Shown here in pieces: positions 4,197 through 20,123 of a stretch of DNA of 64,000 nucleotides. This stretch comes from Dehalococcoidia bacterium. Lineage in GTDB: Bacteria > Chloroflexota > Dehalococcoidia > UBA2979. The stretch spans positions 1,480,142 to 1,544,141 of the forward strand of contig OZ250164.1 in the NCBI GenBank assembly GCA_965237865.1, written 5' to 3'. The notes beneath the pieces are model-generated. The model was not told where the DNA came from. It searched no databases and was given only the letters and a program-made list of their open reading frames with translations. The position numbers and the translations under genes were made by a program. Each line of letters opens with the position of its first letter. The stretch's first letter is position 1.

Positions 4197-4657
4197 GACC
4201 GCTGAGCATTGGATACCGGAACGCTTGCCGGGTGTTGAGCCGTGCTGAACGAAACCTGCGGCGAGGGAGTCTGCTGGACGCCGAACTGCCACCATGTGGA
4301 GTGACTTCGCGCCCTCCGCGTTGACACTCCGGCACCGCCAGCCGTAGCCTCGATAGCGGTCGCAGCGTGAAGAGAGCGACGAAGAACGGGAGTAGTACGC
4401 CGCCACGCGGGGCCCAGAGAGCCGGGGCAAGGTGGAAGCCCGGCGCCCGACAGCAGCGGCGGAATGGACCCGGGAGTCTCGGCCCGAACGCCCCTCGGGG
4501 CAAGTAGGCGTCGACGGTGTGGGCGCCGTTATCCAGGCCCAGGGCATCGCCGCCACGTCCCGCATCCGGGGCAGCCGGGCGGCCGTGCCTTGAATGAGCG
4601 CGAGCCGCGCGGGCCTCGAGGCCTGCCGGCGCGCGGAACTTGGGTGGCGCCGCGAGG

Positions 4658-4685
4658 ACCATCGCCCCAGGGCGGTGGTTCTTTT
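4658..4685 (+). terminator. Candidate intrinsic terminator or attenuator-like hairpin upstream of the trp leader
   Basis: Stem 'CCAUCGCC' / 'GGCGGUGG' with one G-U pair and a CCAG loop, followed by 'UUCUUUUG'. U-rich tracts are rare at this GC content. Confidence 0.35.
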
Positions 4686-4730
4686 GCGTCCGGAGCGCAC
4701 ACTGTTCGGGGAGAACGAGGAGGCTTGATC

Positions 4731-4850
4731 GTGCACAGCAGCCCTGCGCCGTACTGCCGCCAGTCCGCGCCGCGCCTCGGCGGCGTCTGGTGGTGGCCGC
4801 ACGCCGCACGGACGGAACGCTGCAGCGCACGGACAGGACCACGACGATGA
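4731..4850 (+). CDS. trpL: trp operon leader peptide (39 aa) with three consecutive Trp codons
   Basis: GTG start 9 nt downstream of the SD 'GAGGAGG'. Sequence reads '...RLGGVWWWPHAARTERCSARTGPRR*'. TGG TGG TGG lies at 4788-4796. Its stop TGA overlaps the trpE ATG as ATGA. Confidence 0.6.
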   Translation: MHSSPAPYCRQSAPRLGGVWWWPHAARTERCSARTGPRR

Positions 4851-6337
4851 CCCCACCCACCGCAACCCGCACGACACCGACCCGCGAGGAGCTGCGCCGC
4901 CTCGCCGCCGCCGGCGAGGGCAACCTCGCCGCGATCTACCGCGAGGTGCGCGCCGACCTCGAGACGCCCGTCTCCGCCTACCTCAAGGTCGCGCGCGGCG
5001 AGTACTCGTTCCTGCTCGAGTCCGTCGAGGGCGGCGAGCGCATGGGGCGCTACTCGTTCATCGGCACGGAGCCCTACCGCGTCAGCGCCCTGCATCACGA
5101 GGACGGCGATCCGCTGCTCGTGATCGAGGACGAGATCAGCCAGTTCCGCCCGGTGCCGGCGCCGGGCCTGCCGCGCTTCCACGGCGGCGCCGTCGGCTAC
5201 CTCGGCTACGAGGCGGTCGGGCACTTCGAGCGCGTGCCGCAGCCGGAGACGGACGCGCTGGGCGTGCCCGAGTCGTGGCTGATGTTCACGGATACGCTGC
5301 TCGTCTTCGACCACGTGCTGCACACCATCAAGGTGATCTCGCACGCGCGCCTCGACGGCGACATCGACGCCGCCTACGACGCCGCGGTCGCGAAGATCGA
5401 CCGCCTCACGGAGCGCCTCGCAGCCCCGCTCGCCGCGCTGCCCTACACCCCGCTCGACGGGCCGACGGGGCAGCCCATCGAGTCCAACTGGGCGCACGCG
5501 GACTACCTGGAGGCCGTCAAGACGACCAAGCGCTACATCACCGACGGCGACATCATCCAGGCGGTGATCGCGCAGCGCTTCTCGCGCAGGACCGGCGTAC
5601 ACGCGGTGGAGCTCTACCGCTCGCTGCGCGTGGTCAACCCCTCGCCCTACATGTACCTGCTGCAGTTCGGCGAGATCGCCATCGTTGGCGCCTCCCCCGA
5701 GCTGCTGGTGAAGGTCGAGGACGGCCGCGTCGACGTGCACCCGATCGCGGGCACGCGGCCACGCACCGGATCGCCCGCCGAGGACGAGCGGCTGGCCGAG
5801 GAGCTGCGCAACGATCCGAAGGAGATCGCGGAACACGTGATGCTGCTCGACCTCGGGCGCAACGACGTGGGGCGCGTCTCGAAGATCGGCTCGGTCGAGG
5901 TGACGCAGAGCTTCGACCTCGAGTTCTACTCGCACGTCATGCACCTCGTGAGCCACGTGCAGGGCGAGCTGCGCGAGGGGATGAGCGAGTACGACGCGCT
6001 GCGGTCGGCCTTCCCGGCGGGCACGGTCTCCGGCGCGCCGAAGATCCGCGCGATGGAGATCATCGCGGAGCTGGAGCCGGACCGGCGCGGCCCGTACGCG
6101 GGCGCGGTGGGGTTCTTCGACCTCTCGGGCAACGTCGAGACCTGCATCACGATCCGCACCGCGCTGCTGCGCGACGGCGTCGCCTACGTGCAGGCCGGCG
6201 GCGGCATCGTCTACGACTCCGACCCGCAGCGGGAGTTCGAGGAGACCCAGCACAAGGCGCGGGCGCTGATGGCCGCCATCGACGACGCCGAGGCGCGGGC
6301 CGGCGTCAGCACGCCGTCGGGAAGCCTGGGCTACTGA
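4847..6337 (+). CDS. trpE: Anthranilate synthase component I
   Basis: 496 aa from the internal ATG at 4847. Chorismate-binding domain motifs 'LLESVEGGE', 'GAVGYLGYE' and 'PAGTVSGAPKIRAMEII...GPYAGAVGF' are present. Confidence 0.93.
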   Translation: MTPPTATRTTPTREELRRLAAAGEGNLAAIYREVRADLETPVSAYLKVARGEYSFLLESVEGGERMGRYSFIGTEPYRVSALHHEDGDPLLVIEDEISQFRPVPAPGLPRFHGGAVGYLGYEAVGHFERVPQPETDALGVPESWLMFTDTLLVFDHVLHTIKVISHARLDGDIDAAYDAAVAKIDRLTERLAAPLAALPYTPLDGPTGQPIESNWAHADYLEAVKTTKRYITDGDIIQAVIAQRFSRRTGVHAVELYRSLRVVNPSPYMYLLQFGEIAIVGASPELLVKVEDGRVDVHPIAGTRPRTGSPAEDERLAEELRNDPKEIAEHVMLLDLGRNDVGRVSKIGSVEVTQSFDLEFYSHVMHLVSHVQGELREGMSEYDALRSAFPAGTVSGAPKIRAMEIIAELEPDRRGPYAGAVGFFDLSGNVETCITIRTALLRDGVAYVQAGGGIVYDSDPQREFEETQHKARALMAAIDDAEARAGVSTPSGSLGY

Positions 6338-7263
6338 TGGACGCCAAACCGCTCGTCGCCGCCGCCGCGCTGCGCCGCAGCGACGGACGCGTGCTGCTCG
6401 TGCAACACGCCCGGCAGGAGCGCAGCGGCGCCGGCAGCCGCTGGTCCCTGCCCTCGGAGCCCGTCGCCGACGACGAGACCGCGGAGCAGGCGCTGGCGCG
6501 GCTGCTGAACGACCGCCTGCACCTCACCCCGGACCGCGCCGAGTTCAACGACTCGATCGCGCTGCCGGACGCGATCGCCAACGTCTTCCTCTGCAGCTCG
6601 TGGCGAGGCGACCCGCAGTACGCGCCCGCCGACTTCCTCGATGCAGCGTGGGCGCCTCCCGGCGGGGCAGCCGGCATCAATGTCGTCGAGGGCGTGCGCG
6701 AATGGCTGCAGGGCCTGCCCGCGGACGGCGGCGCGCTCCCCAAGAGCGCAAGCCCCGACGAGCTGACCGCGGAGCTGATCACTGCGCGCGACGCGCTGCG
6801 CGCCGCCTACCTCGCCCTCGATGAGCCGTGGCGCGACGTCAGCCTCGACGGCGACTGGGCGCCGGTCGAGCTGCTCGCGCACTGCGCCACGGTCGAGGCC
6901 TACTACGCCTCCGAGGCGCGCGAGCTGCTGGAGACACCGGGCCACACCTGGCGCCCCTTCAACCCGGCGCAGGGCGCCGCCGAGCGCGCGGGCCGCGCGC
7001 GCCCGTCCAGCGATCGCGCCGAGCTCGAACGCCTCGATGTGCTGCGCACGGAGACGCTCGCCTGGGTCGAGACGCTCGGACGGGACGAGCTCGACGCCTA
7101 CGGCGACCACGCCGATCGCGGCGCGGTGCGTGTCGGCGATCGGATCGCGCGAATCGCGGCCCACGACAAGGCTCACACGCAGCAACTCGCGAAGATGCTC
7201 GCCGCCTCGCAGGCGGACCCCGCTGACGACGAGGAGGCCGACGATGCTTCTGCTGATCGATAA
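6338..7263 (+). CDS. NUDIX hydrolase N-terminal domain fused to a DinB/YfiT-like C-terminal domain (308 aa)
   Basis: Start ATG overlaps the trpE stop. N-terminal '...LVQHARQE..WSLPSEPV..ETAEQALARLL' is Nudix-like. C-terminal 'ELLAHCATVEAYY...IAAHDKAHTQQL' is DinB-like. The last six codons are encoded by the first copy of the 71-bp repeat. Confidence 0.6.
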
Positions 7264-7548
7264 CGTCCGCGCGCGGTCTGTGGCTTACATCCGTGGCCTG
7301 TCTGGAGCGTTCCCATGCTTCTCTTGATCGATAACGTCCGCAGGAGGTCTGTGGCTTACATCCGTGGCCTGTCTGGAGCGTTCCCATGCTTCTCTTGATC
7401 GATAACGTCCGCAGGAGGTCTGTGGCTTGCATCCGTGGCCTGTTTGGAGCGTACCCATGCTTCTCTTGATCGATAACGTCCGCGGGCGGTCTGTGGCCTA
7501 CATCCGTGGCCTGTTTGGAGCGTTCCCATGCTTCTACTGATCGATAAC
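7244..7548. repeat. Tandem direct repeat of a 71-bp unit x4, plus a fifth partial copy that is the trpG start
   Basis: The 'ATGCTTCT(C/G/A)(T/C)TGATCGATAAC' motif begins at 7244, 7315, 7386, 7457 and 7528, exactly 71 bp apart. Units are more than 90% identical. Each unit carries an internal 'AGGAGG' and starts a 27-codon ORF (MLLLIDNVRRRSVAYIRGLSGAFPCFS) whose TGA stop overlaps the next unit's ATG. Confidence 0.9.
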
Positions 7549-8121
7549 TACGATTCGTTCACCTACAACCTCTACCAGTACCTCTCCGAGCTGGGCGCGA
7601 CCGTCGAGGTCGTGCGCAACGACGAGGCCAGCGTCGAGGACTGCCTCGCGATGGGGCCGGAGCGGATCGTCGTCTCGCCGGGGCCGTGCACGCCGGCGGA
7701 GGCAGGCATCTCGATCGATCTGATCCGGGCGGCGGCCGGGCAGGTGCCGCTGCTCGGCGTCTGCCTCGGACACCAGAGCATCGGCGAGGCGTTCGGCGCG
7801 CGGGTCGGTCACGCGGGCGAGATCATGCACGGCAAGATCTCGACGGTGACGCACGACGGGCGAGGCGTCTTCGAGTCGCTGCCGCAGCCGTTCGAGGCGA
7901 TTCGCTATCATTCACTGGCGATCGAGCCGGACTCGCTGCCGGACGAGCTCGAGGTCTCGGCGCGCGCGGAGAGCGGGGTGATCATGGGTGTCCGCCACCG
8001 CACGCTGCCGATCGAGGGCGTCCAGTTCCACCCCGAGTCGATCATGACGGCCACGGGCCACGATCTGCTGCGCAACTTCCTCGCGATGGAGTCGCCGCGC
8101 ACAGCGGCGGCCCCGGCGTGA
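7528..8121 (+). CDS. trpG: Anthranilate synthase component II / glutamine amidotransferase
   Basis: 197 aa. Class-I GATase with 'GVCLGHQSIGEAFG' (catalytic Cys) and 'VQFHPES' (His). Confidence 0.93.
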   Translation: MLLLIDNYDSFTYNLYQYLSELGATVEVVRNDEASVEDCLAMGPERIVVSPGPCTPAEAGISIDLIRAAAGQVPLLGVCLGHQSIGEAFGARVGHAGEIMHGKISTVTHDGRGVFESLPQPFEAIRYHSLAIEPDSLPDELEVSARAESGVIMGVRHRTLPIEGVQFHPESIMTATGHDLLRNFLAMESPRTAAAPA

Positions 8122-8126
8122 GTCGG

Positions 8127-8179
8127 GAGGCGGCCTGAGTTGGGCACGTTCAACGTCACCATCGAAGTTGCGGCCGGAC
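8127..8179. repeat. Left copy of a ~53-bp direct repeat; contains the SD and TTG start of the retropepsin-like gene
   Basis: 'GAGGCGGCCTGAGTTGGGCACGTTCAACGTCACCATCGAAGTTGCGGCCGGAC'. A second copy lies at 8524-8581 with about 8 mismatches. Confidence 0.8.
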
Positions 8180-8535
8180 ACGAGGGACCATTCGAAACCC
8201 TCGACGCCGTCGTGGATACGGGCGCGACGTTCACCCGGGTGCCGTCCTCGATCTTGCAGCGCCTGGGTGTCGAACCCGCGCAGCGGCGCGAGTTCATCAC
8301 GCCCGACGGCAACCGCGTGGAACGCGGCGTGGGTTCAGTCGTGGTCCGGATCGACGAGGAAGCGTCCACTACGCTCGCCGTGTTTGGCGAGAGCGATGGC
8401 AACACGGTGCTCGGATCAGTGACGCTGGCGACGCTTGGCCTCGGGGTCGATCCGGCACGACAGCGGCTGGTTCAGGCACCCGCCTACCTCCCGAGCATCG
8501 TGCTGGCCCCCGACACGGAGCGAGAGGCGGTCTGA
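8140..8535 (+). CDS. Retropepsin-like (clan AA) aspartic protease, 131 aa, inserted between trpG and trpD
   Basis: TTG start preceded by 'GGGAGGCGG'. Catalytic motif 'VVDTGATFTRVP'. The size fits a single-lobe retropepsin or a DUF4124-type protease. Confidence 0.6.
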   Translation: MGTFNVTIEVAAGHEGPFETLDAVVDTGATFTRVPSSILQRLGVEPAQRREFITPDGNRVERGVGSVVVRIDEEASTTLAVFGESDGNTVLGSVTLATLGLGVDPARQRLVQAPAYLPSIVLAPDTEREAV

Positions 8536-8587
8536 GTTGGGCACGTTCAACATCGCCATCGAAGTAGCGGTCAGGCCAGACGCATGA
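8524..8587 (+). repeat. Right copy of the 53-bp direct repeat, encoding a 16-codon uORF coupled to trpD
   Basis: It re-creates the SD 'GAGAGGCGG' and a TTG start at 8540. The uORF reads 'MGTFNIAIEVAVRPDA*'. Its TGA stop at 8585-8587 overlaps the trpD ATG at 8584. Confidence 0.7.
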
Positions 8588-9603
8588 TCCGCGAAGCGAT
8601 CACGGCGATTGCGGGGGAGGGCCGCGACCTCAGCGAGGATGAGGCCGCCGCCGTGATGGGCGAGATCATGGAGGCGGAGGCGACGCCCGCGCAGTTCGGC
8701 GCCTTCGTCGTCGCGCTGCAGCACAAGGGCGAGACCGTCGACGAGGTCGTCGGGATGGCGCGCGTGATGCGAGAGCACTCGCTCAAGGCGCACGTCAGCG
8801 CGCGCCCGCTGCTCGACACCTGCGGCACCGGCGGCTCCGGGCTCAGCACGTTCAACGTCTCGACGGCGGCCGCGATCGTCGCCGCCTCCGCCGGGGCGAA
8901 GGTCGCCAAGCACGGCAACCGCGCGATGACCTCGCAGTCCGGCTCGGCCGACCTGCTCGAGGCGCTCGGGGCGGAGATCACACTTGCGCCGGAGCAGGTG
9001 GCGAGCTGCATCGAGCGCACCGGGCTGGGCTTCCTCTTCGCGCAGGCGTTCCACCCGGCGATGAAGTTCGCGGCGCCGTTGCGGCGCGAGATCGGCGTGC
9101 GCACGGTCTTCAACATCCTCGGCCCGCTCACCAACCCCGCCTCGGCCAACAGCCACGTGCTCGGCACGCCCAGCGTCGCCATCGCGGAGCTGCTCGCCGG
9201 GGCGCTGGCGCGCCTCGGCGTACGGCACGCCCTCGTGGTCTCGAGCGACGAGGGCCTCGACGAGATCTCGGTCTCGGCGCCGACGACGCTGTTCGAGGTC
9301 CGCGGCGCGGAGGTCACGCAACGCCGCGTCACGCCGAAGGACCTCGGCGTGATGGAGCGCACGCTCGACGAGGTGCGCGGCGGGAGCGCCGAGGAGAACG
9401 CAGCGGCGCTGCGCGCCGTGCTGCGCGGCGACGGCTCGGGGGCGCTGCGCGACTTCATCGCGATCAACGCCGGCGCGGGCCTCTACGTGTGCGGCCTCGC
9501 CGCCTCCATCCAGCAGGGCGCCGAACAGGCGCTGACGGCTATCGACGAGGGCGAGGCGGCCGCACGCCTCGGCGCCTTCGTCGAAGCCACACGGCGCAGT
9601 TGA
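8584..9603 (+). CDS. trpD: Anthranilate phosphoribosyltransferase
   Basis: 339 aa. Motifs 'DTCGTGGSG' and 'KHGNRAMTSQSGSADLLEALG'. Confidence 0.93.
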   Translation: MIREAITAIAGEGRDLSEDEAAAVMGEIMEAEATPAQFGAFVVALQHKGETVDEVVGMARVMREHSLKAHVSARPLLDTCGTGGSGLSTFNVSTAAAIVAASAGAKVAKHGNRAMTSQSGSADLLEALGAEITLAPEQVASCIERTGLGFLFAQAFHPAMKFAAPLRREIGVRTVFNILGPLTNPASANSHVLGTPSVAIAELLAGALARLGVRHALVVSSDEGLDEISVSAPTTLFEVRGAEVTQRRVTPKDLGVMERTLDEVRGGSAEENAAALRAVLRGDGSGALRDFIAINAGAGLYVCGLAASIQQGAEQALTAIDEGEAAARLGAFVEATRRS

Positions 9604-9607
9604 CGCG

Positions 9608-10507
9608 ATGACGGCGGACGCCTCGGCAGGCGCGGCAACGGATGCCGCTGGCCCGCGCGAGACGGGCACCGTGCTGGATCGCATCGTCGCCGACCGGCGA
9701 CTGCGGCTGGCCGAGGACCAGCGCGCGGCGCCTCCCGACGTGATCGAAGGCCTCGCCGCCTCGCGCCCGACGCCGATCGACTTCGCCGCTCGCCTCGTCG
9801 AGGGCCGAGCGGCCGCACCCGAAGGCGCGCGGCTGCGGTTGATCGCCGAGATCAAGCGCGCCTCGCCCTCCCGCGGCGTGATCGACGCCGGGCTCGACGC
9901 CGCCTCGCAGGCCCGCGCGTACGCCGCCGCGGGCGCCTCCGCCGTCTCCGTGCTGACCGAGCCGACGTTCTTCCAGGGCAGCATCGAGGACCTCGCGGCG
10001 GCCGCGGAGGCGTTCGGCAGCGACGCGGACCGGCCGGCGCTGCTGCGCAAGGACTTCGTGTTCGACGCCTACCAGGTCATCGAGGCGCGCGCGCACGGCG
10101 CGGACGCGCTGCTGCTGATCGCGATGATGCTGCCGCCCCGCACGCTCGCCTCGCTGCTCGCGCTCACGCACGCGCAGGGCATGGAGGCGCTGGTCGAGGT
10201 CCACGACGCCGAGGAGCTCGCGGCCGCCCTCGACGCCGGAGCGCGCGTGATCGGCGTCAACAACCGCGATCTGCGGACCTTCGACGAGGACCTCGCGACC
10301 TTCGAGCGGCTCGCGCCGCTCGCGCCGGACGGCGTCGCGCTCGTCGCCGAGTCGGCGATCCACACCGCCGGGGACGCGGCGCGGATGGCCGACGCCGGGG
10401 CGCACGCGCTGCTCGTCGGCGAGGCGCTCGTGCGCTCGGGCGACATCGCCTCGAAGGCGCGGGAATTGATGCTCGCGCCAGTGCGTCGCGGGGTGGCCGG
10501 CTCGTGA
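9608..10507 (+). CDS. trpC: Indole-3-glycerol phosphate synthase
   Basis: 299 aa. 'IAEIKRASPSRG' and 'LLRKDFVFDAYQVIEARAHGADALLLI' are IGPS signatures. Confidence 0.9.
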   Translation: MTADASAGAATDAAGPRETGTVLDRIVADRRLRLAEDQRAAPPDVIEGLAASRPTPIDFAARLVEGRAAAPEGARLRLIAEIKRASPSRGVIDAGLDAASQARAYAAAGASAVSVLTEPTFFQGSIEDLAAAAEAFGSDADRPALLRKDFVFDAYQVIEARAHGADALLLIAMMLPPRTLASLLALTHAQGMEALVEVHDAEELAAALDAGARVIGVNNRDLRTFDEDLATFERLAPLAPDGVALVAESAIHTAGDAARMADAGAHALLVGEALVRSGDIASKARELMLAPVRRGVAGS

Positions 10508-11250
10508 CGCTCGTCAAGATCTGCGGCAACCGCACGCCTGCCGACGTGCTCTCCGCGGCCGAGGCCGGCGCCGATTTCGTGGGGATATGCTTCGCGGAAT
10601 CGAGTCGCCAGGTTGGCGTCGCCGAGGCACAGGCGATGGTCCGCGCCCTCGGCGAGCCGCTTGCCGCGCACGAGATCGCGCTGCCGCCCCCCGCCTGGGG
10701 CCACGCGCGCGAGCACGAGCGCGAGTGGTTCCGCCACGGCGCGGAGGTGATCGAGGCCTACCTCGAGGCGAAGCGGCCGCTCACCGTCGGCCTCTTCGCC
10801 GACCAGCCGATCGAGGAGGTCAACGAGATCGCGCTGGAGACAGAGCTGGACCTGGTCCAGCTCTCCGGCGACGAGACCTGGGAGGACTGCCTGCTCGTCG
10901 CGCGGCAGGTGATCCAGGTCGTGCACGTCTCCCCGCTCGACTCGCCCTCGGACCCGCTCAGGTTCGTCGAGCCGGGCTTTGCGATCGCGCTGATGCTCGA
11001 CTCCGCGCACGGGCCGTACCGCGGCGGATCGGGGCGCGCGTTCGACTGGGAGGTGGCCCGTATCGTCTCCGCCGAGCTGCCGATGATGCTCGCCGGCGGC
11101 CTCACCCCGGAGAACGTCGGCGAGGCGATCGCCCGCGTCGCCCCGTGGGCCGTCGATGTCTCGAGCGGCACGGAGACTGACGGGCGCAAGGACCCCGCCC
11201 GCGTGCGCGACTTCATAGACGCAGTGCGCCGCCAGGACGCCGCTGCCTGA
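10504..11250 (+). CDS. trpF: Phosphoribosylanthranilate isomerase
   Basis: 248 aa. GTG start overlaps the trpC stop. 'VKICGNRTPADV' and 'MLAGGLTPENV' are PRAI motifs. It is about 35 aa longer than typical TrpF. Confidence 0.85.
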   Translation: MTLVKICGNRTPADVLSAAEAGADFVGICFAESSRQVGVAEAQAMVRALGEPLAAHEIALPPPAWGHAREHEREWFRHGAEVIEAYLEAKRPLTVGLFADQPIEEVNEIALETELDLVQLSGDETWEDCLLVARQVIQVVHVSPLDSPSDPLRFVEPGFAIALMLDSAHGPYRGGSGRAFDWEVARIVSAELPMMLAGGLTPENVGEAIARVAPWAVDVSSGTETDGRKDPARVRDFIDAVRRQDAAA

Positions 11251-11355
11251 CGCCAGGGTCCGTCGGGCGACGGCGCTCGGCGGACTGTGCCGAGTCCCTC
11301 CAGACGTTGCTGACAGCCTCTCGGCGGGTGGTAGCAGAGGAGCCGCCCCTCACCT

Positions 11356-11437
11356 CGGTATTGTCGTTGTGTCACAACGCTTCCCGACCGAGGGAGTCTG
11401 CCGCCCTGAGGATGGCGACACTGTGTCACAAGGTCGC
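11356..11437. promoter_or_regulatory. Two copies of an inverted-repeat operator-like motif TTGTG-T-CACAA, 64 bp apart, upstream of the STAS gene
   Basis: 'GTTGTGTCACAACG' at ~11359 and 'CACTGTGTCACAAGG' at ~11423. Each has a TGTG-N-CACA dyad. They lie in a 400-bp non-coding gap between trpF and the signalling module. Confidence 0.35.
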
Positions 11438-11657
11438 GGCTGTGCCTGGTGACCCGTCTGTCCGAGCGAGGCGATCCGCGAGTGCTACCGCGCGAGACGA
11501 ACACGAGGGGCGATCGGGCTCCCGGCGGCCTCAGGCGCTCCGAGGCCACACCAGTCAACCCGCACACATGCGCGGGCTGCAGTGGCTCACGTATACTCCG
11601 ACGGGGCTTGTACTGCCCCAGCCATCGATCACGAGGACGGGTTCAGGAGACGAACTT

Positions 11658-11996
11658 ATGGAAATCAACGCGGAGCGCGACGGCTCGACCGTCGTCGCCA
11701 AGCCGATGGGGCGCCTCGACGGCTCCAACGCGAGCGACTTCCAGGAAGCCCTTGAGGGGGCGATCGAGGAGAGCGATCGCGGCCTCGTCCTTGACTTCGA
11801 GGACATCTCCTACATCAGCAGCGCGGGACTCCGCGTCATCCTGCTCACGGCCCGGACCCTCCAGGGCAACGGCGGCTCAATGGCCCTCTGCTCCCTCGAC
11901 GCCCCGATCCGCGAGGTCTTCGCGATCAGTGGCTTCGACACCATCATCCCGATTCACGGTAACCGCGACGAGGCACTGGCTGCCGTCAGCGCGTAG
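11658..11996 (+). CDS. STAS-domain anti-sigma-factor antagonist (SpoIIAA/RsbV-like), 112 aa
   Basis: ATG lies 7 nt after 'AGGAGA'. 'DFEDISYISSAGLRVILL' carries the conserved phosphorylatable Ser. The longer ORF 11307..11996 in the track is rejected. Confidence 0.75.
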   Translation: MEINAERDGSTVVAKPMGRLDGSNASDFQEALEGAIEESDRGLVLDFEDISYISSAGLRVILLTARTLQGNGGSMALCSLDAPIREVFAISGFDTIIPIHGNRDEALAAVSA

Positions 11997-12050
11997 CCAG
12001 GGTCGCCCAGCCCGAACGAGAGACGCGCACCCCCTCCCCGAGACGACGCG

Positions 12051-13202
12051 ATGACCCACAAGATCCTGGTTGTTGACGACGAGCCTGACCTCGAACCCCT
12101 CATGCTCCAGCGCATGCGCCGCGACATCAGGCAGGGCGTCTACGAGTTCGTCTTCGCCCGGAACGGCGTGGAGGCGCTGCAGAAGCTCAACGAGGACGAC
12201 GGAATCGACATGGTCCTCTCCGACATCAACATGCCCGAGATGGACGGTCTCACCCTGCTGCAGCAGATTCCCTCGGTAAATCCGGACATCCGTGCCGTAA
12301 TCATCTCCGCCTACGGCGACATGCAGAACATCCGGACGGCCATGAACCGCGGCGCGTTCGACTTCGTGACCAAGCCGCTGGACTTCGACGACCTGCGGAT
12401 CACCGTCGACCGCACGCTCCAGCATGTCGAGGAGTGGCGCGAGGCGCTGCAGAGCCGCGACAGGCTGGTGACGCTACAGAACGAGCTGGATGTCGCCAGC
12501 AAGATGCAGCAGTCGATCCTCCCGACCGTCTTTCCCAGCGGCGAGAGCTACGAGACCTTCGGAACGATGCAGCCGGCCCGGAACGTGGGGGGTGACTTCT
12601 TCGACATCGTCCGCCTGCAGCACGATCAGATCGGCCTCGCCATCGCGGATGTGTCCGGCAAGGGCGTGCCCGCCGCCCTGTTCATGATGTCCAGCCGCAC
12701 CCTGCTCAAGGGCGCGGCGATCAGTTTCGAGGAACCCGGCCCCGTGCTGTCGGAGGTCAACAACCTGCTTCAGGAAGATGACACGGCGGGCATGTTCGTC
12801 ACCATGCTCTACGCCACCTACAGTCCCGCGACCGGGAACTTCACCTATGCCAGCGGCGGGCACGACGCCCCGCTCGTGATCCACGCCGACGGCAGCTCCA
12901 CGCTGCTGCCCCTGACCGGCGGTCTCGCCCTGGGCGTGGTGCCGGGTATCGAATACCGGCAGGAGAGCTACACGCTCGCCCCCGGCGACACCGTCGTCCT
13001 CTACACCGACGGCGTGACCGAGGCCACCAACATCGACGACGAACTGCTGGGAGTCGAAGGCATGCGCGAGTACTTCGGGCCCGAGCACCTGGCCGAAGAC
13101 GCGGAAACGACCGGTATCGAAATCATGAGGATGGTCAACGACTTCACCGGCGACGCACCCCAGCACGATGACGTCACCTGCCTGATCCTGCGACAGGAGT
13201 GA
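12051..13202 (+). CDS. Response-regulator receiver domain fused to a PP2C/SpoIIE-type Ser/Thr phosphatase (RsbU/RsbP-like)
   Basis: REC domain 'KILVVDDEPD..MVLSDINMPEMDG'. C-terminal PP2C motifs 'GGDFFDI', 'IADVSGKGVPAALFM', 'LYTDGVTEA' and 'DDVTCLIL'. Confidence 0.85.
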   Translation: MTHKILVVDDEPDLEPLMLQRMRRDIRQGVYEFVFARNGVEALQKLNEDDGIDMVLSDINMPEMDGLTLLQQIPSVNPDIRAVIISAYGDMQNIRTAMNRGAFDFVTKPLDFDDLRITVDRTLQHVEEWREALQSRDRLVTLQNELDVASKMQQSILPTVFPSGESYETFGTMQPARNVGGDFFDIVRLQHDQIGLAIADVSGKGVPAALFMMSSRTLLKGAAISFEEPGPVLSEVNNLLQEDDTAGMFVTMLYATYSPATGNFTYASGGHDAPLVIHADGSSTLLPLTGGLALGVVPGIEYRQESYTLAPGDTVVLYTDGVTEATNIDDELLGVEGMREYFGPEHLAEDAETTGIEIMRMVNDFTGDAPQHDDVTCLILRQE

Positions 13203-13206
13203 CGAG

Positions 13207-13626
13207 TTGAGCGCGGCACTCTCATTGACCGTTAAGACCGCCCACCACGAGCTGGAGCGGATTGTTGCCGCCATCGAGAACCTGGCGGAAGAGGACGACT
13301 GGCCGCCCGACCTGCTCTTCCGCGTGAATCTGGTGCTCGAGGAGCTGGGCCTGAACATCGTGGACTACGGGCACGATGACGAGACCCACGATTTCGAGAT
13401 CTCCCTGACATCCGAAGGAGACTCGGTGACGATCGAGATCGTCGACGGCGGACGGCCCTTCGATCCCCTGTCCGACGCTCCCGCTCCCGATCTGACGTCG
13501 GGGATCGCGGACAGGCGCATCGGGGGCCTCGGCGTCCACTTCGTGCGCACGCTGATGGACGACGTGCAGTACGAACGCTCCGCAGGCAAGAACCGGTTGA
13601 AGATGGTGACCCGCAAGGTCAGATGA
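13207..13626 (+). CDS. Anti-sigma regulatory factor-type Ser/Thr kinase (RsbW/SpoIIAB-like HATPase), 139 aa
   Basis: TTG start. 'RVNLVLEELGLNIVDYG' and 'IGGLGVHFVRTLMDDVQY' (G-box) are GHKL-kinase motifs. No sigma-factor gene is adjacent. Confidence 0.7.
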   Translation: MSAALSLTVKTAHHELERIVAAIENLAEEDDWPPDLLFRVNLVLEELGLNIVDYGHDDETHDFEISLTSEGDSVTIEIVDGGRPFDPLSDAPAPDLTSGIADRRIGGLGVHFVRTLMDDVQYERSAGKNRLKMVTRKVR

Positions 13627-14894
13627 GGCGGCAGCGCCCCGTGCGAGTTGTCGGGCTGACAGCGGTCTGTCTGGTGCTTGCGGCGTCTCTCCTCGCGGGC
13701 TGCGGCCTCGGCGGCGGCGGATCGGACGGCGTCGAACCCGTCGATGGCGCCCCGACGCCGACCGCGACCGTTGAGGCCGGGACACCCGGCGTATCCGAAG
13801 ACCGGATCCTGTTCGGCCAGTCCGCAGCCTTCAATGGGCCCGCGCAGGAACTCGGCAAGAACATGCGGATTGGCATCAACGCCGCGTTTGCCGAGACCAA
13901 CCTGGCCGGGGGCGTCCATGGCCGGCTGCTGGAGCTCTTCTCCCTCGACGACTCTTACGAGCCGGAAGCCGCGATCGCCAATACCCGGCGCCTGATCGAG
14001 GAGGAGGGTGTGTTCGCGCTGATCGGCGCGGTCGGCACTCCCACCTCCCGCTCCGCCACCCCCATCGCCGCGGACGCAGGTGTCCCCTACATCGCGCCGT
14101 TCACCGGCGCTGCGTTCCTGCGCGACCCGGAGTGGGACAACATCATCAACCTGCGCGCCTCCTACGCCCAGGAGACCGAGGAGATGGTGGCCCGGCTCAT
14201 AGGCGACCTGGGCATCGAGCGCATCGGCATCATGTACCAGGACGACTCCTACGGCCGCGCCGGCTACAGCGGCGCGCTCGCTGCGCTGCAGCGCCGGGGG
14301 CGCGAGCCCGTGGCCATCGGCCTGTATCCCCGCAATACGACCGCCGTCAAGACGGCACTCCTCGACCTGCGCGAGGGCGCCCCCGAAGCGGTCATCATGA
14401 TCGGCGCCTACGAGCCGATGGCAGCGCTGATCAAGTGGGGCCGAGCCACCGGGTTCAACCCGGTGTTCCTGAACGTCTCGTTCGTCGGCAGCAACGCGCT
14501 GGCCCAGGAACTGGGCACTGACGGCGCGGGCGTCGTCGTGACCCAGGTCGTTCCCTTCCCGGACGACGACTCACTCCCGCTGATCGCCGCCTACAAGCGC
14601 GCCCTGGCCGTCTACGCGCCAGACGCCGTCCCCGGTTTTGTCTCCCTCGAGGGCTACCTCGCCGGCCGGCTCGCCATCGCGGGGCTCGATAGCTGCGGCC
14701 CCGCGGTCGACCGTGCCTGTTTCGTGAACGCCCTCCTCGGGGCGGACGCCATCGACATCGATGGCTTCGAACTCAGCTTCGGCGAGAACGACAACCAGGG
14801 CTCGGACTCCGTGTTCATCACGGTGATCGGCTCAGACGGCCTCTATCATCCGATTGAGACGCTGCAGGACTTGGAGTCATGGTCGACAAACTGA
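13623..14894 (+). CDS. Periplasmic solute-binding lipoprotein, type-1 PBP (LivK/amino-acid-binding-like); orphan, no permease or ATPase genes adjacent
   Basis: Lipobox 'LLAGCG'. The venus-flytrap PBP fold is inferred from length and composition. The gene overlaps both the kinase upstream and the sensor kinase downstream. Confidence 0.7.
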   Translation: MRRQRPVRVVGLTAVCLVLAASLLAGCGLGGGGSDGVEPVDGAPTPTATVEAGTPGVSEDRILFGQSAAFNGPAQELGKNMRIGINAAFAETNLAGGVHGRLLELFSLDDSYEPEAAIANTRRLIEEEGVFALIGAVGTPTSRSATPIAADAGVPYIAPFTGAAFLRDPEWDNIINLRASYAQETEEMVARLIGDLGIERIGIMYQDDSYGRAGYSGALAALQRRGREPVAIGLYPRNTTAVKTALLDLREGAPEAVIMIGAYEPMAALIKWGRATGFNPVFLNVSFVGSNALAQELGTDGAGVVVTQVVPFPDDDSLPLIAAYKRALAVYAPDAVPGFVSLEGYLAGRLAIAGLDSCGPAVDRACFVNALLGADAIDIDGFELSFGENDNQGSDSVFITVIGSDGLYHPIETLQDLESWSTN

Positions 14895-17065
14895 AGCGCC
14901 TGCTCGAGAGCCGCTTCCGGATCTCCACCCAGTTGTACCTGGCCATGGGTGGCGCGGTCCTCCTCACGCTGGCCGCCAGTCTGGTCGCCTGGTTCTCCTT
15001 CAATCAGGTCGGGGAGGTCCAGAGCAACGTCAATGAAGGCAGCGTGCCTGAACTGGCCGCCGCGTTCGGCGTCGCCCAGTACAGCGGCATCCTGGTAGCA
15101 GCGGCTCCCAACCTTACCGTCGCCGCCACGCCGGAGGAGTTCGACCAGGTCGTCCTGAGCATCGATCAGGCGTACGCCTCGTTCGAGGAGCAGATGGCCG
15201 CGCTCGAGGAGGGCGACAGCGAGCGCGAGCGCGTGGTCCGCATCCGCGGCTACGCCGACACGCTCATCTCCAATATCGAAGCGCTTGAGAGCGAGACCTC
15301 CGGAGTGTTCGAGCTGATCGTCCGCCGGGAGGCGCTGCAACTGGAGCTCACGGAAGTGCGCGCCCAGCTGGACGATGCGCTTGCGCCTGCCATCGACGAT
15401 CAGCTGTTCTTCACACTGACCGGCTACCGGGATCTCTCGGCGCCCCCAGCCCCGCGCTCGGAGCACCTCTCCGAGGACCAGTTCGTGCGCTACCGGCGCC
15501 TCGCCGAGTTGCAGGCGGACGTGAACATCGCGACCGAACTCCTCGCGAACGCATTCACCCTTTCGGACGCATCCCTGATCGAGCCGCTCAGGGAACGCTT
15601 CGAATCCACGGTTAGCCGTATCGACCGGAATCTGGCGGCGCTGGCGGGGTCTCCCTTCCACGACGAAGCGGCGCCAACCTTCACCCGGCTGTTCGCGCTT
15701 GGCTCGGGCGAGACAAGCGTGTTCGATCTGTTCGCCAGCGAACTCAGAATCGTGGGACGCCAGGCGGAGTTGCTTGACCTCAATCGCGACCTCTCGGTCG
15801 AGGTGATCGCGGAGGTGGACGGCCTGGTGAGCGCCGCCCAGGCGAGCGCCGGGGACGCCACCGAGGCATCCACGCAGGCGATCTTCACGGGCCGGGTGCT
15901 GCTGCTCGCCATCAACGTGATCAGCATCACGGGCGCGCTGCTGATCACGTGGCTGTTCATCGGCCGGGTGCTGCTGCGGCGCATCGGGATGCTGTCGGAG
16001 TGGATGCGCGGCATGGCCCAGGGAGACCTGGAGACCCGCGCCGAAATTGGCGGGCGGGACGAGGTCGCGGAGATGGCCGCCGCCCTCGACGTGTTCCGGC
16101 GTCACGCCCTGGAAGTGCAGCGCCTGAACCTCGTCGAGGAGCTCGCGGAGGAACTCCAGGGCAAGAACGACGAACTCGAGTACGTGCTGGCCCAGCTGCA
16201 GCAGGCGCAGGACCAGATCGTCATGCGGGAGAAGCTGGCGGCGCTCGGTGAACTCACGGCAGGCATCGCCCACGAGATCCGCAACCCGCTGAACTTCGTG
16301 AAGAACTTCGCCGAGGCCTCGGGCGAACTGGTGGACGAACTGAAGGAGATCCTGGAAGAGGAAGGCGTCGAACTGACGGACGAGCAGCGCGATATGGTCG
16401 AGGAGATCACCGGCGACCTGACCAGCAACGTCGAACGCATCCGCTCACACGGCGAGCGCGCGAACCGCATCGTGCAGGACATGCTGAGTATGGGCCGGGG
16501 CTCGCAGGAGTGGCAGACCGTCGAAGTCAACGCGCTGGTGGAGCAGCATGCCATGCTGGCCTACCACAGCGCACGGGCGACGAACCCCGACTTCCAGCTG
16601 GACATCCAGCGCGACTTCGATCCCGAAGCGGGGGATCTCGAGGTCATCCCCCAGGATCTGGGACGCGTCTTCCTCAACATGGTGGGCAACGCCTGTCACG
16701 CGACGCACGAACGGCGCATGTCGGCAGCGGAGACCGGGCTCACGAGCAGGGAGTACATGCCGACGCTGACGCTGGGCACGCGCCGCGAGGGCGATCAGAT
16801 CGAGGTCCGCATCCGCGACAACGGCTCCGGCATCCCGCCGGACATCATCGAGAAGATCTTCAATCCCTTCTTCACGACCAAGCCGACAGATCAGGGCACG
16901 GGACTCGGGCTGGCGATCTCCAGCGACATCGTGCGTCGCCACGGCGGGCACATACGCGTCGAATCGGAGCCGGGCGAATTCACCGAAATGACCGTCGAGT
17001 TGCCGCTGGAGCGGCCGCCCGAGGCGAACCCGGCAGCGCTGGCGGCCCATCCCGGGTTCGAATAG
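14879..17065 (+). CDS. Sensor histidine kinase: two TM helices, ~300-aa periplasmic domain, HAMP, HisKA, HATPase_c
   Basis: TM1 'LYLAMGGAVLLTLAASLVAWF'. TM2 'LLLAINVISITGALLITWLFIG'. H-box 'GIAHEIRNPLNF'. N/G-boxes 'MVGNACHAT' and 'GTGLGLAIS'. Confidence 0.88.
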   Translation: MVDKLKRLLESRFRISTQLYLAMGGAVLLTLAASLVAWFSFNQVGEVQSNVNEGSVPELAAAFGVAQYSGILVAAAPNLTVAATPEEFDQVVLSIDQAYASFEEQMAALEEGDSERERVVRIRGYADTLISNIEALESETSGVFELIVRREALQLELTEVRAQLDDALAPAIDDQLFFTLTGYRDLSAPPAPRSEHLSEDQFVRYRRLAELQADVNIATELLANAFTLSDASLIEPLRERFESTVSRIDRNLAALAGSPFHDEAAPTFTRLFALGSGETSVFDLFASELRIVGRQAELLDLNRDLSVEVIAEVDGLVSAAQASAGDATEASTQAIFTGRVLLLAINVISITGALLITWLFIGRVLLRRIGMLSEWMRGMAQGDLETRAEIGGRDEVAEMAAALDVFRRHALEVQRLNLVEELAEELQGKNDELEYVLAQLQQAQDQIVMREKLAALGELTAGIAHEIRNPLNFVKNFAEASGELVDELKEILEEEGVELTDEQRDMVEEITGDLTSNVERIRSHGERANRIVQDMLSMGRGSQEWQTVEVNALVEQHAMLAYHSARATNPDFQLDIQRDFDPEAGDLEVIPQDLGRVFLNMVGNACHATHERRMSAAETGLTSREYMPTLTLGTRREGDQIEVRIRDNGSGIPPDIIEKIFNPFFTTKPTDQGTGLGLAISSDIVRRHGGHIRVESEPGEFTEMTVELPLERPPEANPAALAAHPGFE

Positions 17066-17301
17066 CCCTCGCCTGCTACAACCGGCGCGACGCGCGGCGG
17101 GGTTGTGGCACAGTGCCGCGCGCCACTTCCTGCGTGGTGCGTTCGCCGCGTGCGCGCAACGCCGCTCGCCGCAGCCGCTGAGACACGTCGGCGCTATCAT
17201 CGACAGACACCGCGCGCGAGGCGAAGAGGGTGCCACGTGGGAGCGCTCCAGACAGTGATCGAAGCGGCGGCCCTCGCCGGCCTGCGGTCGCAGGCAGCCG
17301 C

Positions 17302-18516
17302 ATGACCGCGACCGTGGGCCGCTCCGCCCTGCCCGACGAGCGCGGCTACTTCGGCGCCTTCGGCGGGCGCTACGTGCCTGAGACGCTGATGCCCGCGCTC
17401 GGCGAGCTGGAGGAGGCCTACGCCGCCGCCCGCGAGGACGAGTCCTTCCGCGAGGAGCTCGAGCGGCTACTGCGCGACTTCGTCGGCCGGCCCACGCCGA
17501 TCACGCGCGCGGATCGCCTCGCACGGCGGATCGCGGGCGATCGCGCGCCGCTCGTCTACCTCAAGCGCGAGGACCTGACCCACACCGGCGCGCACAAGAT
17601 CAACGCCGCGCTGGCGCAGGGCCTGCTCGCGCAGCGCATGGGCAAGCCGCGCATCGTCGCGGAGACCGGCGCCGGGCAGCACGGCGTGGCGACGGCCACC
17701 GCCTGCGCGCTGCTCGGCCTCGAATGCGTCGTCTACATGGGCGCCGAGGACGTGCGGCGTCAGGCGCTCAACGTCTTCCGCATGAAGCTCCTCGGCGCCG
17801 AGGTGCGTACCGTCGACTCCGGCTCGCGCACGCTCAAGGACGCGATCAACGAGGCGATCCGCGACTGGGTCACGAACGTGCGCAGCACGTACTACCTGCT
17901 CGGCTCGGTCGTGGGGCCGCACCCCTATCCGCTGCTCGTCCGCGACTTCCAGGCCGTGATCGGCCGGGAGGCGCGGGAGCAACTGCTGGAGGCCGAGGGG
18001 CGGCTGCCCTCGATCGCGCTCGCCTGCGTCGGCGGCGGCTCGAACGCGATCGGGCTGTTCCACGCCTTCGTCGAGGACCCCGTGCGCCTGATCGGCGTCG
18101 AGGCGGCGGGCGAGGGCCTTGATGGGCGGCACGCGGCGCCGCTCGCGGCCGGCACGCCCGGGGTACTGCACGGCTCGCGTTCGTACCTGCTGCAGGACGC
18201 GCACGGGCAGGTCACCGAGGCGCACTCGATCTCGGCCGGCCTCGACTACCCCGGCGTCGGACCGGAGCACTCCTGGCTGAAGGTCAGCGAGCGCGCCGAG
18301 TACGTCTCCGCCACGGACGAGGAGGCGCTCGCCGCCTTCCGGCTGCTCAGCGAGACGGAGGGCATCATCCCGGCGCTGGAGCCCGCGCACGCCCTCGCGT
18401 ACCTCGCGAAGCTGCTGCCCGAGCTCGGCGAGGACGAGCTGGTGCTCGTCAACCTCAGCGGACGCGGCGACAAGGACATGGGCACGGTCGCCGACGCGCT
18501 CGGCCTCACGCTCTAG
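17302..18516 (+). CDS. trpB: Tryptophan synthase beta chain
   Basis: Internal ATG. 'GGRYVPETL', '[10 protein letters not shown]' (PLP Lys) and 'GGGSNAIG' are TrpB motifs. Confidence 0.93.
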
Positions 18517-18566: not shown

Positions 18567-19283
18567 GTGATCGCTGATCGTGCCGAACCGGGGATCGCGA
18601 CGCTCCCGCCGCTGTGGCGCGTGCGCGACATGGTCTCCGCCCTCGCTGTCGTCGTCCTCGCATTCGCCACGCTCGGGATCCTCTTCGCCACCACGGCGGA
18701 GCGAGGCACGGGAGTCAACGCCGCCGGCTTAGCCGCCATCGTCGGCTTCAACCTGCTCCTCGTGGCGACAGTGCTACTGCTCGCAGCGCGGCGCGGGATC
18801 ACGCTGGCCGAACTCGGCTTCGTGCGGCCGCGCGTCTGGGGCCCGATCGCCATCGCCTGGTTCGGGGCCTACGTGATCCTCGGCTGCTACGTCGCCGGCA
18901 TCGCGCTGCTCGACACGCTCGGACTGCCGGTCGAGGCGTTCGAGGGCGGCAATACGATCGACTTCGACCAGAGCCGCGTAGTCCTCGTGGTCGTGCTTGC
19001 GATCGCCACCGTGATCGGGGCGCCGTTCAGCGAGGAGCTGCTGTTCCGAGGACTGTTGCATCGCGGGCTGCGCGGCTACTGGCGTCCGCTTCCGGCGATG
19101 GCGCTGAGCGGGGCGCTGTTCGGCATCTTCCACGTGAACCTCGCCGTGCTGGTGCCGTTCGCCTTCATCGGCGTGCTGTGGGCGTGGGCCTACGAGGAGT
19201 CCGGCTCGCTCTGGACGACGATCACGGCACACGCCGGCGTCAACGGCGTCGCGTTCGCCGCTACACTGATCTTCCTCGATTGA
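18567..19283 (+). CDS. CPBP-family (CAAX/Abi) intramembrane metalloprotease inserted between trpB and trpA
   Basis: Multi-TM protein. 'EELLFRGLL' and 'FGIFHVN' are the CPBP motifs 1 and 2. The probable start is the ATG at 18630. Confidence 0.75.
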   Translation: MIADRAEPGIATLPPLWRVRDMVSALAVVVLAFATLGILFATTAERGTGVNAAGLAAIVGFNLLLVATVLLLAARRGITLAELGFVRPRVWGPIAIAWFGAYVILGCYVAGIALLDTLGLPVEAFEGGNTIDFDQSRVVLVVVLAIATVIGAPFSEELLFRGLLHRGLRGYWRPLPAMALSGALFGIFHVNLAVLVPFAFIGVLWAWAYEESGSLWTTITAHAGVNGVAFAATLIFLD

Positions 19284-19310: not shown

Positions 19311-20123
19311 ATGAGTGATCGCATCGCGCAGTTGTTCGAGCGCACGCGGGCCGAGGGCCGGCCGGCCCTGATCGCGTTCGTGCCCGGCTGCTGGCCCGAG
19401 CCGGACGCCACGCCCGGAATCGTGCGCGCGCTGCTCGAAGGCGGCGCCGACGCCGTCGAGCTGGGCGTGCCCTTCAGCGACCCGCTCGCCGACGGCGTCA
19501 CGAACCAGGCCGCCTACCAGCAGGCGCTCGACGCCGGCGTGACCCAGGACGACGTGCTCGCCAGTGTCCGCACGCTGCGCGAGGACGGCGTCTCCGCGCC
19601 GCTGCTGCTGATGGGATACTTCAACCCGATGCTCGCTCCGGGAACGGAGTCGTTCGCGCGGATGGCCGCGGAGGCCGGAGTCGACGGCCTGATCGTCGTC
19701 GACCTGCCCGTCGAGGAGGCGGAGGAGCTGGCGGAGCCCGCGAGGGCGAACGGCGTGCATCTCGTCTACCTGCTCGCGCCGACCTCGACCGCGGAGCGCA
19801 TCGCGGCCGTCGGGGAGCGCGGCAGCGGCTTCGTCTACTGTGTGAGCGTGACCGGCGTGACCGGAACGCGCGCGCAGCTCCCGGCGGAGCTTCCGTCGTT
19901 CATCGCGCGGGTGCGCGAGCGCGCCTCGCTCCCGCTCGCGGTAGGCTTCGGCATCTCGGCGCGCGAGCATGTCGAGGAGGTCGGCCGCATCGCCGACGCC
20001 GCGATCGTCGGCAGCGCGGTCGTGCAGACGATCCAGGAAGCGCCCATCGAGCGGCGTCATGAGGCGGTGCGCAGCCTGATGGAGCGGCTGAGCGGGCGCG
20101 CAGGGGAGGCGGCAGCGTCATGA
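19311..20123 (+). CDS. trpA: Tryptophan synthase alpha chain
   Basis: 270 aa. 'AFVPGCWPEPD', 'GADAVELGVPFSDPLADG' and 'GFGIS' match TrpA. Confidence 0.92.
   Translation: MSDRIAQLFERTRAEGRPALIAFVPGCWPEPDATPGIVRALLEGGADAVELGVPFSDPLADGVTNQAAYQQALDAGVTQDDVLASVRTLREDGVSAPLLLMGYFNPMLAPGTESFARMAAEAGVDGLIVVDLPVEEAEELAEPARANGVHLVYLLAPTSTAERIAAVGERGSGFVYCVSVTGVTGTRAQLPAELPSFIARVRERASLPLAVGFGISAREHVEEVGRIADAAIVGSAVVQTIQEAPIERRHEAVRSLMERLSGRAGEAAAS

Follow-up and report, generated by a model that had tools for sequence, protein, structure and literature searches.

A partner-switching cassette with a TorS-like input, probably horizontally transferable and inserted between trpF and trpB in one Dehalococcoidia lineage

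Signalling routes in which a histidine kinase controls a phosphatase made of a receiver and a PP2C domain (REC-PP2C), which in turn acts on a STAS protein, have been described experimentally in Bacillus cereus (RsbK/RsbY) and in Mycobacterium smegmatis (RsfS/RsfR) (PMC10950880). In the M. smegmatis system, where RsfS and RsfR work with RsfB and RsbW2, there is no sigma factor in the locus, and RsbW2, which phosphorylates the STAS protein, shows no binding to SigF (PMC10950880). Here we analyse a 64,000-nucleotide stretch of a Dehalococcoidia genome (contig OZ250164.1, positions 1,480,142 to 1,544,141 of the forward strand; hereafter the window), in which genes for a STAS protein, a REC-PP2C phosphatase, an RsbW-like kinase, a LivK-type solute-binding protein and a sensor histidine kinase stand between trpF and trpB. 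Its signalling core has the same parts as that of M. smegmatis, where four clustered genes without a sigma factor encode a non-hybrid membrane kinase that phosphorylates a REC-PP2C protein, the single-domain STAS protein that this phosphatase dephosphorylates, and a small RsbW-like kinase that re-phosphorylates the STAS protein. It also resembles the B. cereus RsbK/RsbY system with RsbV, RsbW and SigB, in which a two-component kinase controls a REC-PP2C protein acting on a STAS antagonist. A first-pass annotation of the window knew of no described equivalent; these two systems fill that place. We propose that the five genes are probably a self-contained, horizontally transferable signalling cassette whose insertion at trpF/trpB took place in a single Dehalococcoidia lineage, rather than a regulator devoted to tryptophan synthesis.

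All five genes are co-directional on the plus strand between trpF (10504-11250) and trpB (17230-18516), as the first-pass annotation had stated, and Pfam recovers each of the domains that it had named. In order, they encode a 112-residue STAS protein (11658-11996; Pfam STAS), a 383-residue REC-PP2C protein (12051-13202; Response_reg and SpoIIE/PP2C), a 139-residue RsbW-like kinase (13207-13626; HATPase_c_2), a 423-residue LivK-type solute-binding lipoprotein (13623-14894; Peripla_BP_6) and a 728-residue sensor histidine kinase (14879-17065; HAMP, HisKA and HATPase_c). The genes had been described as overlapping, which holds for two of the junctions, between the RsbW-like kinase and binding-protein genes (4 bp) and between the binding-protein and histidine kinase genes (16 bp); the remaining two are gaps, of 54 bp between STAS and REC-PP2C and of 4 bp between REC-PP2C and RsbW. 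The module had also been drawn from about 11300. Its genes are real, but the STAS gene starts at an ATG at 11658, which is kept together with its ribosome-binding site in relatives, and a 229-residue open reading frame from 11307 was rejected as a spurious extension of it. An exact-match look-up with the REC-PP2C protein of the window returned nothing on record; relatives of the proteins of the window bear the labels of Dehalococcoidia or Chloroflexi metagenome-assembled genomes. All five proteins fall below the curated NCBIfam equivalog cut-offs, and the sole superfamily cut-off passed is that of the STAS protein.

One genome per species was scanned with the REC-PP2C protein, which gave 447 confirmed relatives, and the best 80 of these 447 loci were retrieved. 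Locus counts below refer to 81 non-redundant loci and residue-invariance counts to aligned orthologs extracted from those loci; neighbourhoods reach up to 10 kb from the cassette for trp, STAS and sigma-factor counts, and up to 7 kb for ammonium transporter (amt) and CP_ATPgrasp genes. The order REC-PP2C, RsbW, binding protein and histidine kinase is kept in 74 of the 81 loci, and four more are cut by contig ends. The STAS gene lies directly upstream in 64 loci and elsewhere in the locus in six, and 11 have none in the neighbourhood. By their labels, the carriers span at least six phyla, with Dehalococcoidia/Chloroflexota, Acidimicrobiia, Gamma- and Alphaproteobacteria, Trueperaceae, Terriglobia and Opitutales among them, and many of their assemblies are chromosome-level; complete chromosomes with the cassette include OZ252046.1, OZ244720.1 and OZ253485.1. 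The best identities across phyla are 69-76% for REC-PP2C, 67-78% for the binding protein and 58-66% for the histidine kinase, and the G+C content of the cassette follows that of each host genome. This combination of high cross-phylum identity and host-like composition points to horizontal transfer of the cassette as a whole unit, followed by long residence in its hosts.

Copies within this set also differ from one another. In L022, a member of the trp-embedded clade, the cassette (9500-15100) is a mosaic relative to the window, with STAS and binding protein 88% and 82% identical and REC-PP2C, RsbW and histidine kinase 72%, 58% and 68% identical, which suggests recombination with a different cassette lineage. 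Two loci (L052 and L073, 9400-14400) hold a partial copy with STAS, REC-PP2C and RsbW and without the binding protein and histidine kinase; a gene for a large CARDB-domain protein follows, and integrase and transposase genes are nearby. On the contig of L052 there is also a complete copy (L053). A search of plasmids for a vehicle gave only distant relatives (25-46% identity), and the two matches inspected, to an Azospirillum sensor domain and a Runella REC-PP2C, were without the five-gene cassette. The record or bin names of many carriers hint at a possible sponge or coral association, and a literature search on the sponge origin of the carriers and on links to amt or CP_ATPgrasp gave nothing directly usable.

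The first-pass annotation had taken the location of the module as a sign that it controls tryptophan or aromatic amino-acid biosynthesis. The comparison of neighbourhoods speaks against this. Of the 81 loci, only 9 have trp genes beside the cassette, all of them in the Dehalococcoidia clade of the window, where the Trp proteins are 81-99% identical; in the other 72 the cassette stands in unrelated places, so the embedding in trp genes is not constant. In other Dehalococcoidia its neighbours are either SulP and squalene-synthase genes or genes for CP_ATPgrasp and Amt. In two relatives of the window with TrpF 77-79% identical (L086 and L087), trpF and trpB overlap by 4 bp and there is no cassette, which makes these empty sites; a third (L085, TrpF 84% identical) has only a 92-residue open reading frame between trpF and trpB and was counted as an empty site too. 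Within the clade, the spacer between trpF and STAS ranges from 0.4 to 3.0 kb, and in L001 it contains an antisense cation-efflux gene. The G+C content at third codon positions is 0.85-0.90 in the cassette versus 0.91-0.95 in the trp genes. From these comparisons the cassette reads as an insertion at the trpF/trpB junction, and because trp flanks are found in one clade only and empty sites exist, its position is no evidence for tryptophan control. An unrelated insertion, which the first-pass annotation had named as grounds for refuting its reading if transcript data showed it, is what comparative genomics points to. Nor is the trp operon otherwise contiguous, as had been claimed. It is interrupted at three other places, trpE/trpG, trpG/trpD and trpB/trpA, by genes for a NUDIX-DinB fusion, a clan-AA aspartic-protease-like protein and a CAAX protease, respectively, and with several unrelated inserts in the window and its relatives we regard the trp cluster as a loose arrangement that can accept insertions.

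The two spacers that border the cassette were examined for regulatory signals and for traces of insertion. The left, non-coding spacer after trpF is ~410 bp long (11251..11657), and only its last ~70 bp (about 11585-11657, including a GGAG ribosome-binding site) are conserved in the clade, so that this region is a probable promoter or 5' leader of the cassette. The right spacer before trpB measures ~165 bp (17066..17229), with its final ~65 bp conserved in the clade. Rfam gave no match at gathering thresholds anywhere in the window, so that the junctions show neither riboswitch nor T-box nor leader RNA. Consensus scans for promoters and terminators over 4-22 kb gave sites no more numerous than in shuffled sequence, and no terminator-like site was found by such a scan between the histidine kinase gene and trpB; trpB may therefore be partly transcribed from the cassette promoter by read-through, a passive form of coupling. 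When the surroundings of the cassette were searched for terminal repeats or the ends of a mobile element, no long repeat, direct or inverted, was convincing. The 9-bp palindrome TGTGNCACA is present at 11368-11376, 11422-11430 and 17104-17112, all within the two bordering spacers. These are three copies in 64 kb versus 0.27 expected, and none of 100 shuffles reached three. In the clade, the closest relative (L005) retains a single copy and the remaining members lack it, and because it is so poorly kept we leave this border palindrome uninterpreted.

The three switch proteins make up a partner-switching set, namely a STAS protein with a phosphorylatable serine, a HATPase_c_2 serine kinase and a PP2C phosphatase with its metal-binding aspartates. 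The STAS protein (Pfam STAS, 2e-18) is a single domain of the anti-sigma-antagonist type and scores 78 bits with TIGR00377, above the cut-off; its phosphorylatable serine is Ser54 in the motif Y-I-S-S-A-G, invariant in 70/70 orthologs. In the REC-PP2C protein (Response_reg, 2e-24; SpoIIE/PP2C, 6e-50), the receiver residues D9, D10, D58, S86 and K108 and the PP2C aspartates D182, D185, D200, D320, D373 and D374 are invariant in 82/82 orthologs. Among solved structures its nearest relative is 3eq2, which was deposited under the name 'probable two-component response regulator' and aligns with the REC and PP2C domains alike, and its best NCBIfam match is the Pseudomonas RssB family RR_RssB_Pseudo (NF045505), at 108 bits versus a cut-off of 700. 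The RsbW-like kinase (HATPase_c_2, 2e-25) has the N, G1 and G2 boxes, and residues E46, N50, D80, G106, G107 and G109 are invariant in 81/81 orthologs; its best named matches are RsbW and SpoIIAB, yet they are distant, far below both cut-offs. The receiver belongs to the NtrC/GlrR/ZraR class and the core of the histidine kinase to the AtoS/ZraS class, an expected pairing. As the first-pass annotation had noted, the only receiver among the ~55 genes of the window is the one fused to PP2C. It had likewise reported no sigma factor nearby, and indeed the cognate sigma factor that is usual in the clusters of RsbU/RsbV/RsbW systems was not found in the 64-kb window.

On the input side, the binding protein matches Peripla_BP_6 (4e-55), carries a LAGC lipobox in its translation and has 4kv7 as its nearest solved relative (8e-78); with PRK15404 it reaches 52 bits versus a cut-off of 477. 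Members of the Dehalococcoidia are generally considered to have no outer membrane. For this reason and because of the lipobox, we describe the protein as probably membrane-anchored and extracytoplasmic rather than periplasmic. ABC permease or ATPase genes are absent among the ~55 window genes, and Liv-type ones are not recurrent in the related loci. The histidine kinase consists of a first transmembrane segment, a sensor domain (about residues 45-340), a second transmembrane segment, HAMP, HisKA with His465, and HATPase_c, and in it Pfam gave no match to a receiver, HPt or CHASE3 domain. Residues H465, N604, D647 and G651 are invariant in 74/74 orthologs.

The outer domain of the kinase, ~300 residues between the two hydrophobic segments, resembles that of TorS by several measures. 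Pfam TorS_sensor_domain (PF21689) is found in 22 of 26 orthologs, with a best E-value of 3.8e-12 and 1.2e-4 for the window copy, and a profile of the sensor domain matches the full length of the TorS chains 3o1h and 3i9y (E 3e-4). The NCBIfam TorS model TIGR02956 aligns with residues 15-719, at 155 bits versus a cut-off of 676. An AlphaFold2 model of the sensor built with 36 homologs has a mean pLDDT (predicted local distance difference test score) of 80, and above 90 through most of the sensor domain; a single-sequence model (pLDDT 50) was discarded as unusable. When this model was compared with the PDB by Foldseek, each of the top six hits was a TorS sensor domain, with TorS-TorT complexes among them, at target-normalised TM-scores (template modelling) of 0.59-0.79. 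The outer domain is thus predicted to be a TorS-type double four-helix bundle. TorS senses its ligand through the binding protein TorT, an established mechanism, and binding proteins that stimulate kinases typically have their genes beside signalling genes, not transporter genes (PMC8050422). In the cassette loci, the binding-protein gene is immediately upstream of the kinase gene in 74/81. Because of the TorS-type fold, the strict gene pairing and the lack of transporter genes, we consider the binding protein most likely to be, by analogy, a TorT-like co-sensor of the kinase. The first-pass annotation had called it an orphan, which is right as regards transporter partners in the window; kinase co-sensor is the better reading. 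Furthermore, an Azospirillum plasmid carries a distant homolog of the sensor domain that is preceded by a binding-protein gene and followed by a sigma-54-type response regulator. Since this pair is wired to a different regulator, a binding protein with a TorS-like kinase looks like a portable input unit.

These elements can be joined into a single route. The membrane-anchored LivK-type protein would bind a small molecule outside the cell, which is probably an amino acid or some other small organic acid or amide, and would dock on the TorS-type sensor of the kinase as TorT does on TorS, judging from fold, gene pairing and the lack of transporter genes. The kinase would then autophosphorylate on His465 and pass the phosphate to Asp58 of REC-PP2C, altering its phosphatase activity. 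We favour this transfer because the cassette has only one receiver, because the classes of kinase and receiver match, and because RsbK/RsbY and RsfS/RsfR offer precedents. The PP2C phosphatase and the RsbW-like kinase, whose catalytic residues are invariant, would together set the phosphorylation of the STAS protein on Ser54. This agrees with the order of binding protein, kinase, REC-PP2C and STAS/RsbW switch that the first-pass annotation had proposed, and with active-site residues invariant and kinase and receiver classes matching, it appears to be the most economical reading. The output, the least certain step, would be a partner switch onto a target encoded elsewhere, through either unphosphorylated STAS or the freed kinase. 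As the cassette is intact in at least six phyla without a sigma factor of its own, such a target is probably present in all hosts and may be unlinked, like the partner of RsfB in M. smegmatis; a lineage-specific sigma factor of the SigB/SigF type seems less likely. A STAS- or kinase-mediated switch onto an unlinked, conserved target is therefore the most likely form of output.

Several points weigh against a transferable cassette with this wiring. It is kept at the trp site, co-directional with the trp genes, in nine retrieved related genomes and in the window, and with no terminator-like site before trpB, read-through could couple trpB to the cassette promoter. In 11/81 loci there is no STAS gene in the neighbourhood, so the switch components are not always linked. 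Peripla_BP_6 differs from the Pfam family of TorT, and a 2021 review names no Peripla_BP_6 protein as a kinase partner. Moreover, every phosphotransfer and binding step is drawn from homology and gene order. The retention at the trp site and the lack of a terminator-like site before trpB would also suit a cassette that senses an aromatic or other extracellular amino acid and controls tryptophan or aromatic synthesis post-transcriptionally, for example by the RsbW-like kinase or the STAS protein acting on Trp enzymes. The cassette does lie inside an aromatic supercluster (aroA, trpEGDCFBA, aroH, DAHP synthase and tyrS), and the ligands of the Peripla_BP_6 family, which span branched-chain amino acids, gamma-aminobutyric acid and aromatic acids, include amino acids. 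However, the 72 orthologous cassettes without trp genes in reach are 62-76% (REC-PP2C) and 47-76% (binding protein) identical to the window, the sister lineages with overlapping trpF and trpB already weaken the idea, the trp cluster tolerates further unrelated inserts, with minus-strand genes between trpB and trpA among them, and an antisense gene parts trpF from the cassette in a member of the clade itself. We therefore hold tryptophan control to be very improbable. A canonical anti-sigma circuit, in which the RsbW-like protein sequesters a SigB/SigF-type sigma factor encoded elsewhere until dephosphorylated STAS frees it, has in its favour that the STAS protein passes the TIGR00377 anti-sigma-antagonist cut-off, that the best named matches of the kinase are RsbW and SpoIIAB, and that the described RsbK/RsbY and RsfS/RsfR routes end in SigB and SigF. 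Yet the kinase scores far below the cut-offs of both named families, and the linked RsbW2 of M. smegmatis does not bind a sigma factor. In addition to the window, 77/81 loci showed no sigma factor in a search with three query sequences, which detected rpoD as a positive control and may miss extracytoplasmic function (ECF) sigma factors. The other four (L062, L074, L077 and L082) have the housekeeping rpoD (~7900-9990) as the immediate upstream neighbour of the REC-PP2C gene and STAS downstream on the opposite strand; they come from one gammaproteobacterial family, labelled Azotimanducaceae or Pseudomonadales. A cassette moving among six phyla without its sigma factor would presumably lose its target, and we consider the anti-sigma circuit unlikely.

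The transferable-cassette reading is also compatible with a nitrogen-linked output, in which the STAS/kinase pair acts on, or is co-regulated with, Amt and CP_ATPgrasp/Alpha-E/transglutaminase genes. The commonest neighbours from outside the cassette are DUF502 (21 loci), CP_ATPgrasp (16), the ammonium transporter (15), Alpha-E (10) and transglutaminase (10), and an Amt gene, a CP_ATPgrasp gene or both are within reach in 22/81 loci, from five phyla and in at least five arrangements. In the Opitutales loci L081 (14926-16323) and L084, amt begins 33 bp after the kinase gene and is effectively a sixth gene of the cassette operon; it lies 310 bp after the kinase gene in L028 and 100 bp before STAS in the Terriglobia locus L078, and the remaining flanks of these four loci are unrelated. 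In several phyla amt is part of a CP_ATPgrasp/Alpha-E/transglutaminase operon beside the cassette (L004, 15286-20078; L019, L023, L027, L030, L069, L036, L050 and L058). No glnK (P-II) gene was seen among the ten flanking open reading frames scanned around amt of L081, L028 and L078, and none was called in L004. We roughly estimate that ~1% of random loci would lie this near to amt. Against these observations stand the absence of the pattern from the window, which has no Amt, CP_ATPgrasp, Alpha-E, transglutaminase or DUF502 gene, from its clade and from ~73% of the loci, the lack of precedent for STAS/RsbW control of Amt, and the possibility that co-transfer of neighbours gave the pattern without a functional link. 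A nitrogen or ammonium link is our favoured lead on the output, with a SigB/SigF-type target as the weaker alternative, but taken by itself it is tentative and improbable rather than probable. Still more doubtful, if the most far-reaching, is a sigma-independent mobile sensory switch of marine bacteria in at least six phyla, whose STAS/RsbW pair acts directly on a conserved non-sigma target, for example by gating a GlnK-less ammonium transporter. A SulP gene divergent beside STAS in the L002 group was also considered as a clue to the output and set aside, as it is confined to one lineage.

The trp cluster of the window, all on the plus strand, starts downstream of aroA and gmk with trpE (4640-6337). 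The start of the NUDIX-DinB fusion gene (~6340-7263), between trpE and trpG, abuts the trpE stop. Every relative examined has this gene too, even where TrpF identity is as low as 77% (L001, 2590-3495; L085-L087), and it is a stable member of the trp cluster. Next come trpG (7528-8121) and the clan-AA aspartic-protease-like gene (TIGR03698; 8140-8535), which precedes trpD (8584-9603). Three copies of this small gene are present in L022 (including 4088-4865 and 15180-15560), one of them between the kinase gene and trpB, and there are none in L085 and L087; it behaves like a gene spreading within the trp cluster. After trpC (9608-10507) and trpF, and on the far side of the cassette and trpB, the CAAX protease gene (18567-19283), of the CAAX/Rce1-like intramembrane type, lies directly upstream of trpA (19311-20123) in the window and in all relatives examined. 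L085-L087 have three minus-strand genes (DUF2064, radical SAM and GT2) between trpB and this protease gene. Genes for aroH, DAHP synthase, scpA, ribF and tyrS follow trpA, also on the plus strand.

Elsewhere in the window, where G+C content is ~70%, a stretch of lower G+C (about 0.65-0.66) without a Pfam match lies between gmk and trpE (1957-4600). It includes a 567-residue minus-strand open reading frame (1957-3660), and relatives have a transposase pair or other genes there. Three transposase or integrase genes (36678-38003, DDE_Tnp_1_4; 43803-45383, rve with a Mu-transposase C-terminal domain; 45990-46985, IS481-like) are found within 10 kb of each other in a region that is otherwise housekeeping. 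A cluster at 47837-53406 resembles one for phosphatidylinositol-mannoside synthesis, with genes for a CDP-alcohol phosphatidyltransferase, a GT4 glycosyltransferase, two Lip_A_acyltrans-family acyltransferases and inositol-1-phosphate synthase.

Since the cassette works in very different hosts, identifying what it targets might bring to light an output of partner switching that is general and independent of sigma factors. For this output, the recurrent amt neighbourhood supplies a concrete hypothesis; if it is true, a free-standing STAS switch with a TorS/LivK-type extracellular sensor that controls a transporter would be a new regulatory principle. The failed tryptophan claim is a caution against inferring function from gene order in a single genome.

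Among known systems, TorT/TorS, which senses trimethylamine N-oxide (PDB 3O1H and 3O1I; PMC8050422), shares with the cassette an extracytoplasmic double four-helix-bundle sensor and a class-I binding-protein gene beside the kinase gene, without transporter genes. However, TorS, as a hybrid kinase, has receiver and HPt domains of its own and passes its signal to the OmpR-type TorR, whereas the cassette kinase has neither domain and pairs with REC-PP2C, and TorT is of another binding-protein family than Peripla_BP_6. LivJ and LivK have the Peripla_BP_6 fold but are linked to LivHMGF permease and ATPase genes, unlike the binding protein here. In HsbR/HsbA of Pseudomonas aeruginosa, a receiver-PP2C protein similarly acts on a STAS partner under phosphorelay control; HsbR differs in having a kinase domain in the same polypeptide and in being fed by HptB, with FlgM and RpoS as outputs. 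B. cereus RsbK, in contrast to the cassette kinase, is a hybrid with CHASE3 and GAF domains and a methyltransferase partner, in a cluster that includes sigB and no binding protein. M. smegmatis RsfS has a CHASE3 sensor and no binding-protein partner, where the cassette kinase has a TorS-type sensor; its genes form two divergent operons and its output is known, RsbW1/SigF. A TorS-type kinase and a LivK-type protein joined to REC-PP2C, RsbW and STAS is a combination absent from the literature searched. New features here are the TorS-like/LivK-like input, a locus with no linked sigma factor, occurrence in many phyla and the recurrent link to an ammonium transporter gene. Compared with RsbK/RsbY and RsfS/RsfR, the cassette is set apart by an obligatory LivK-type partner, a TorS-type sensor, a single co-directional operon and its wide distribution among phyla.

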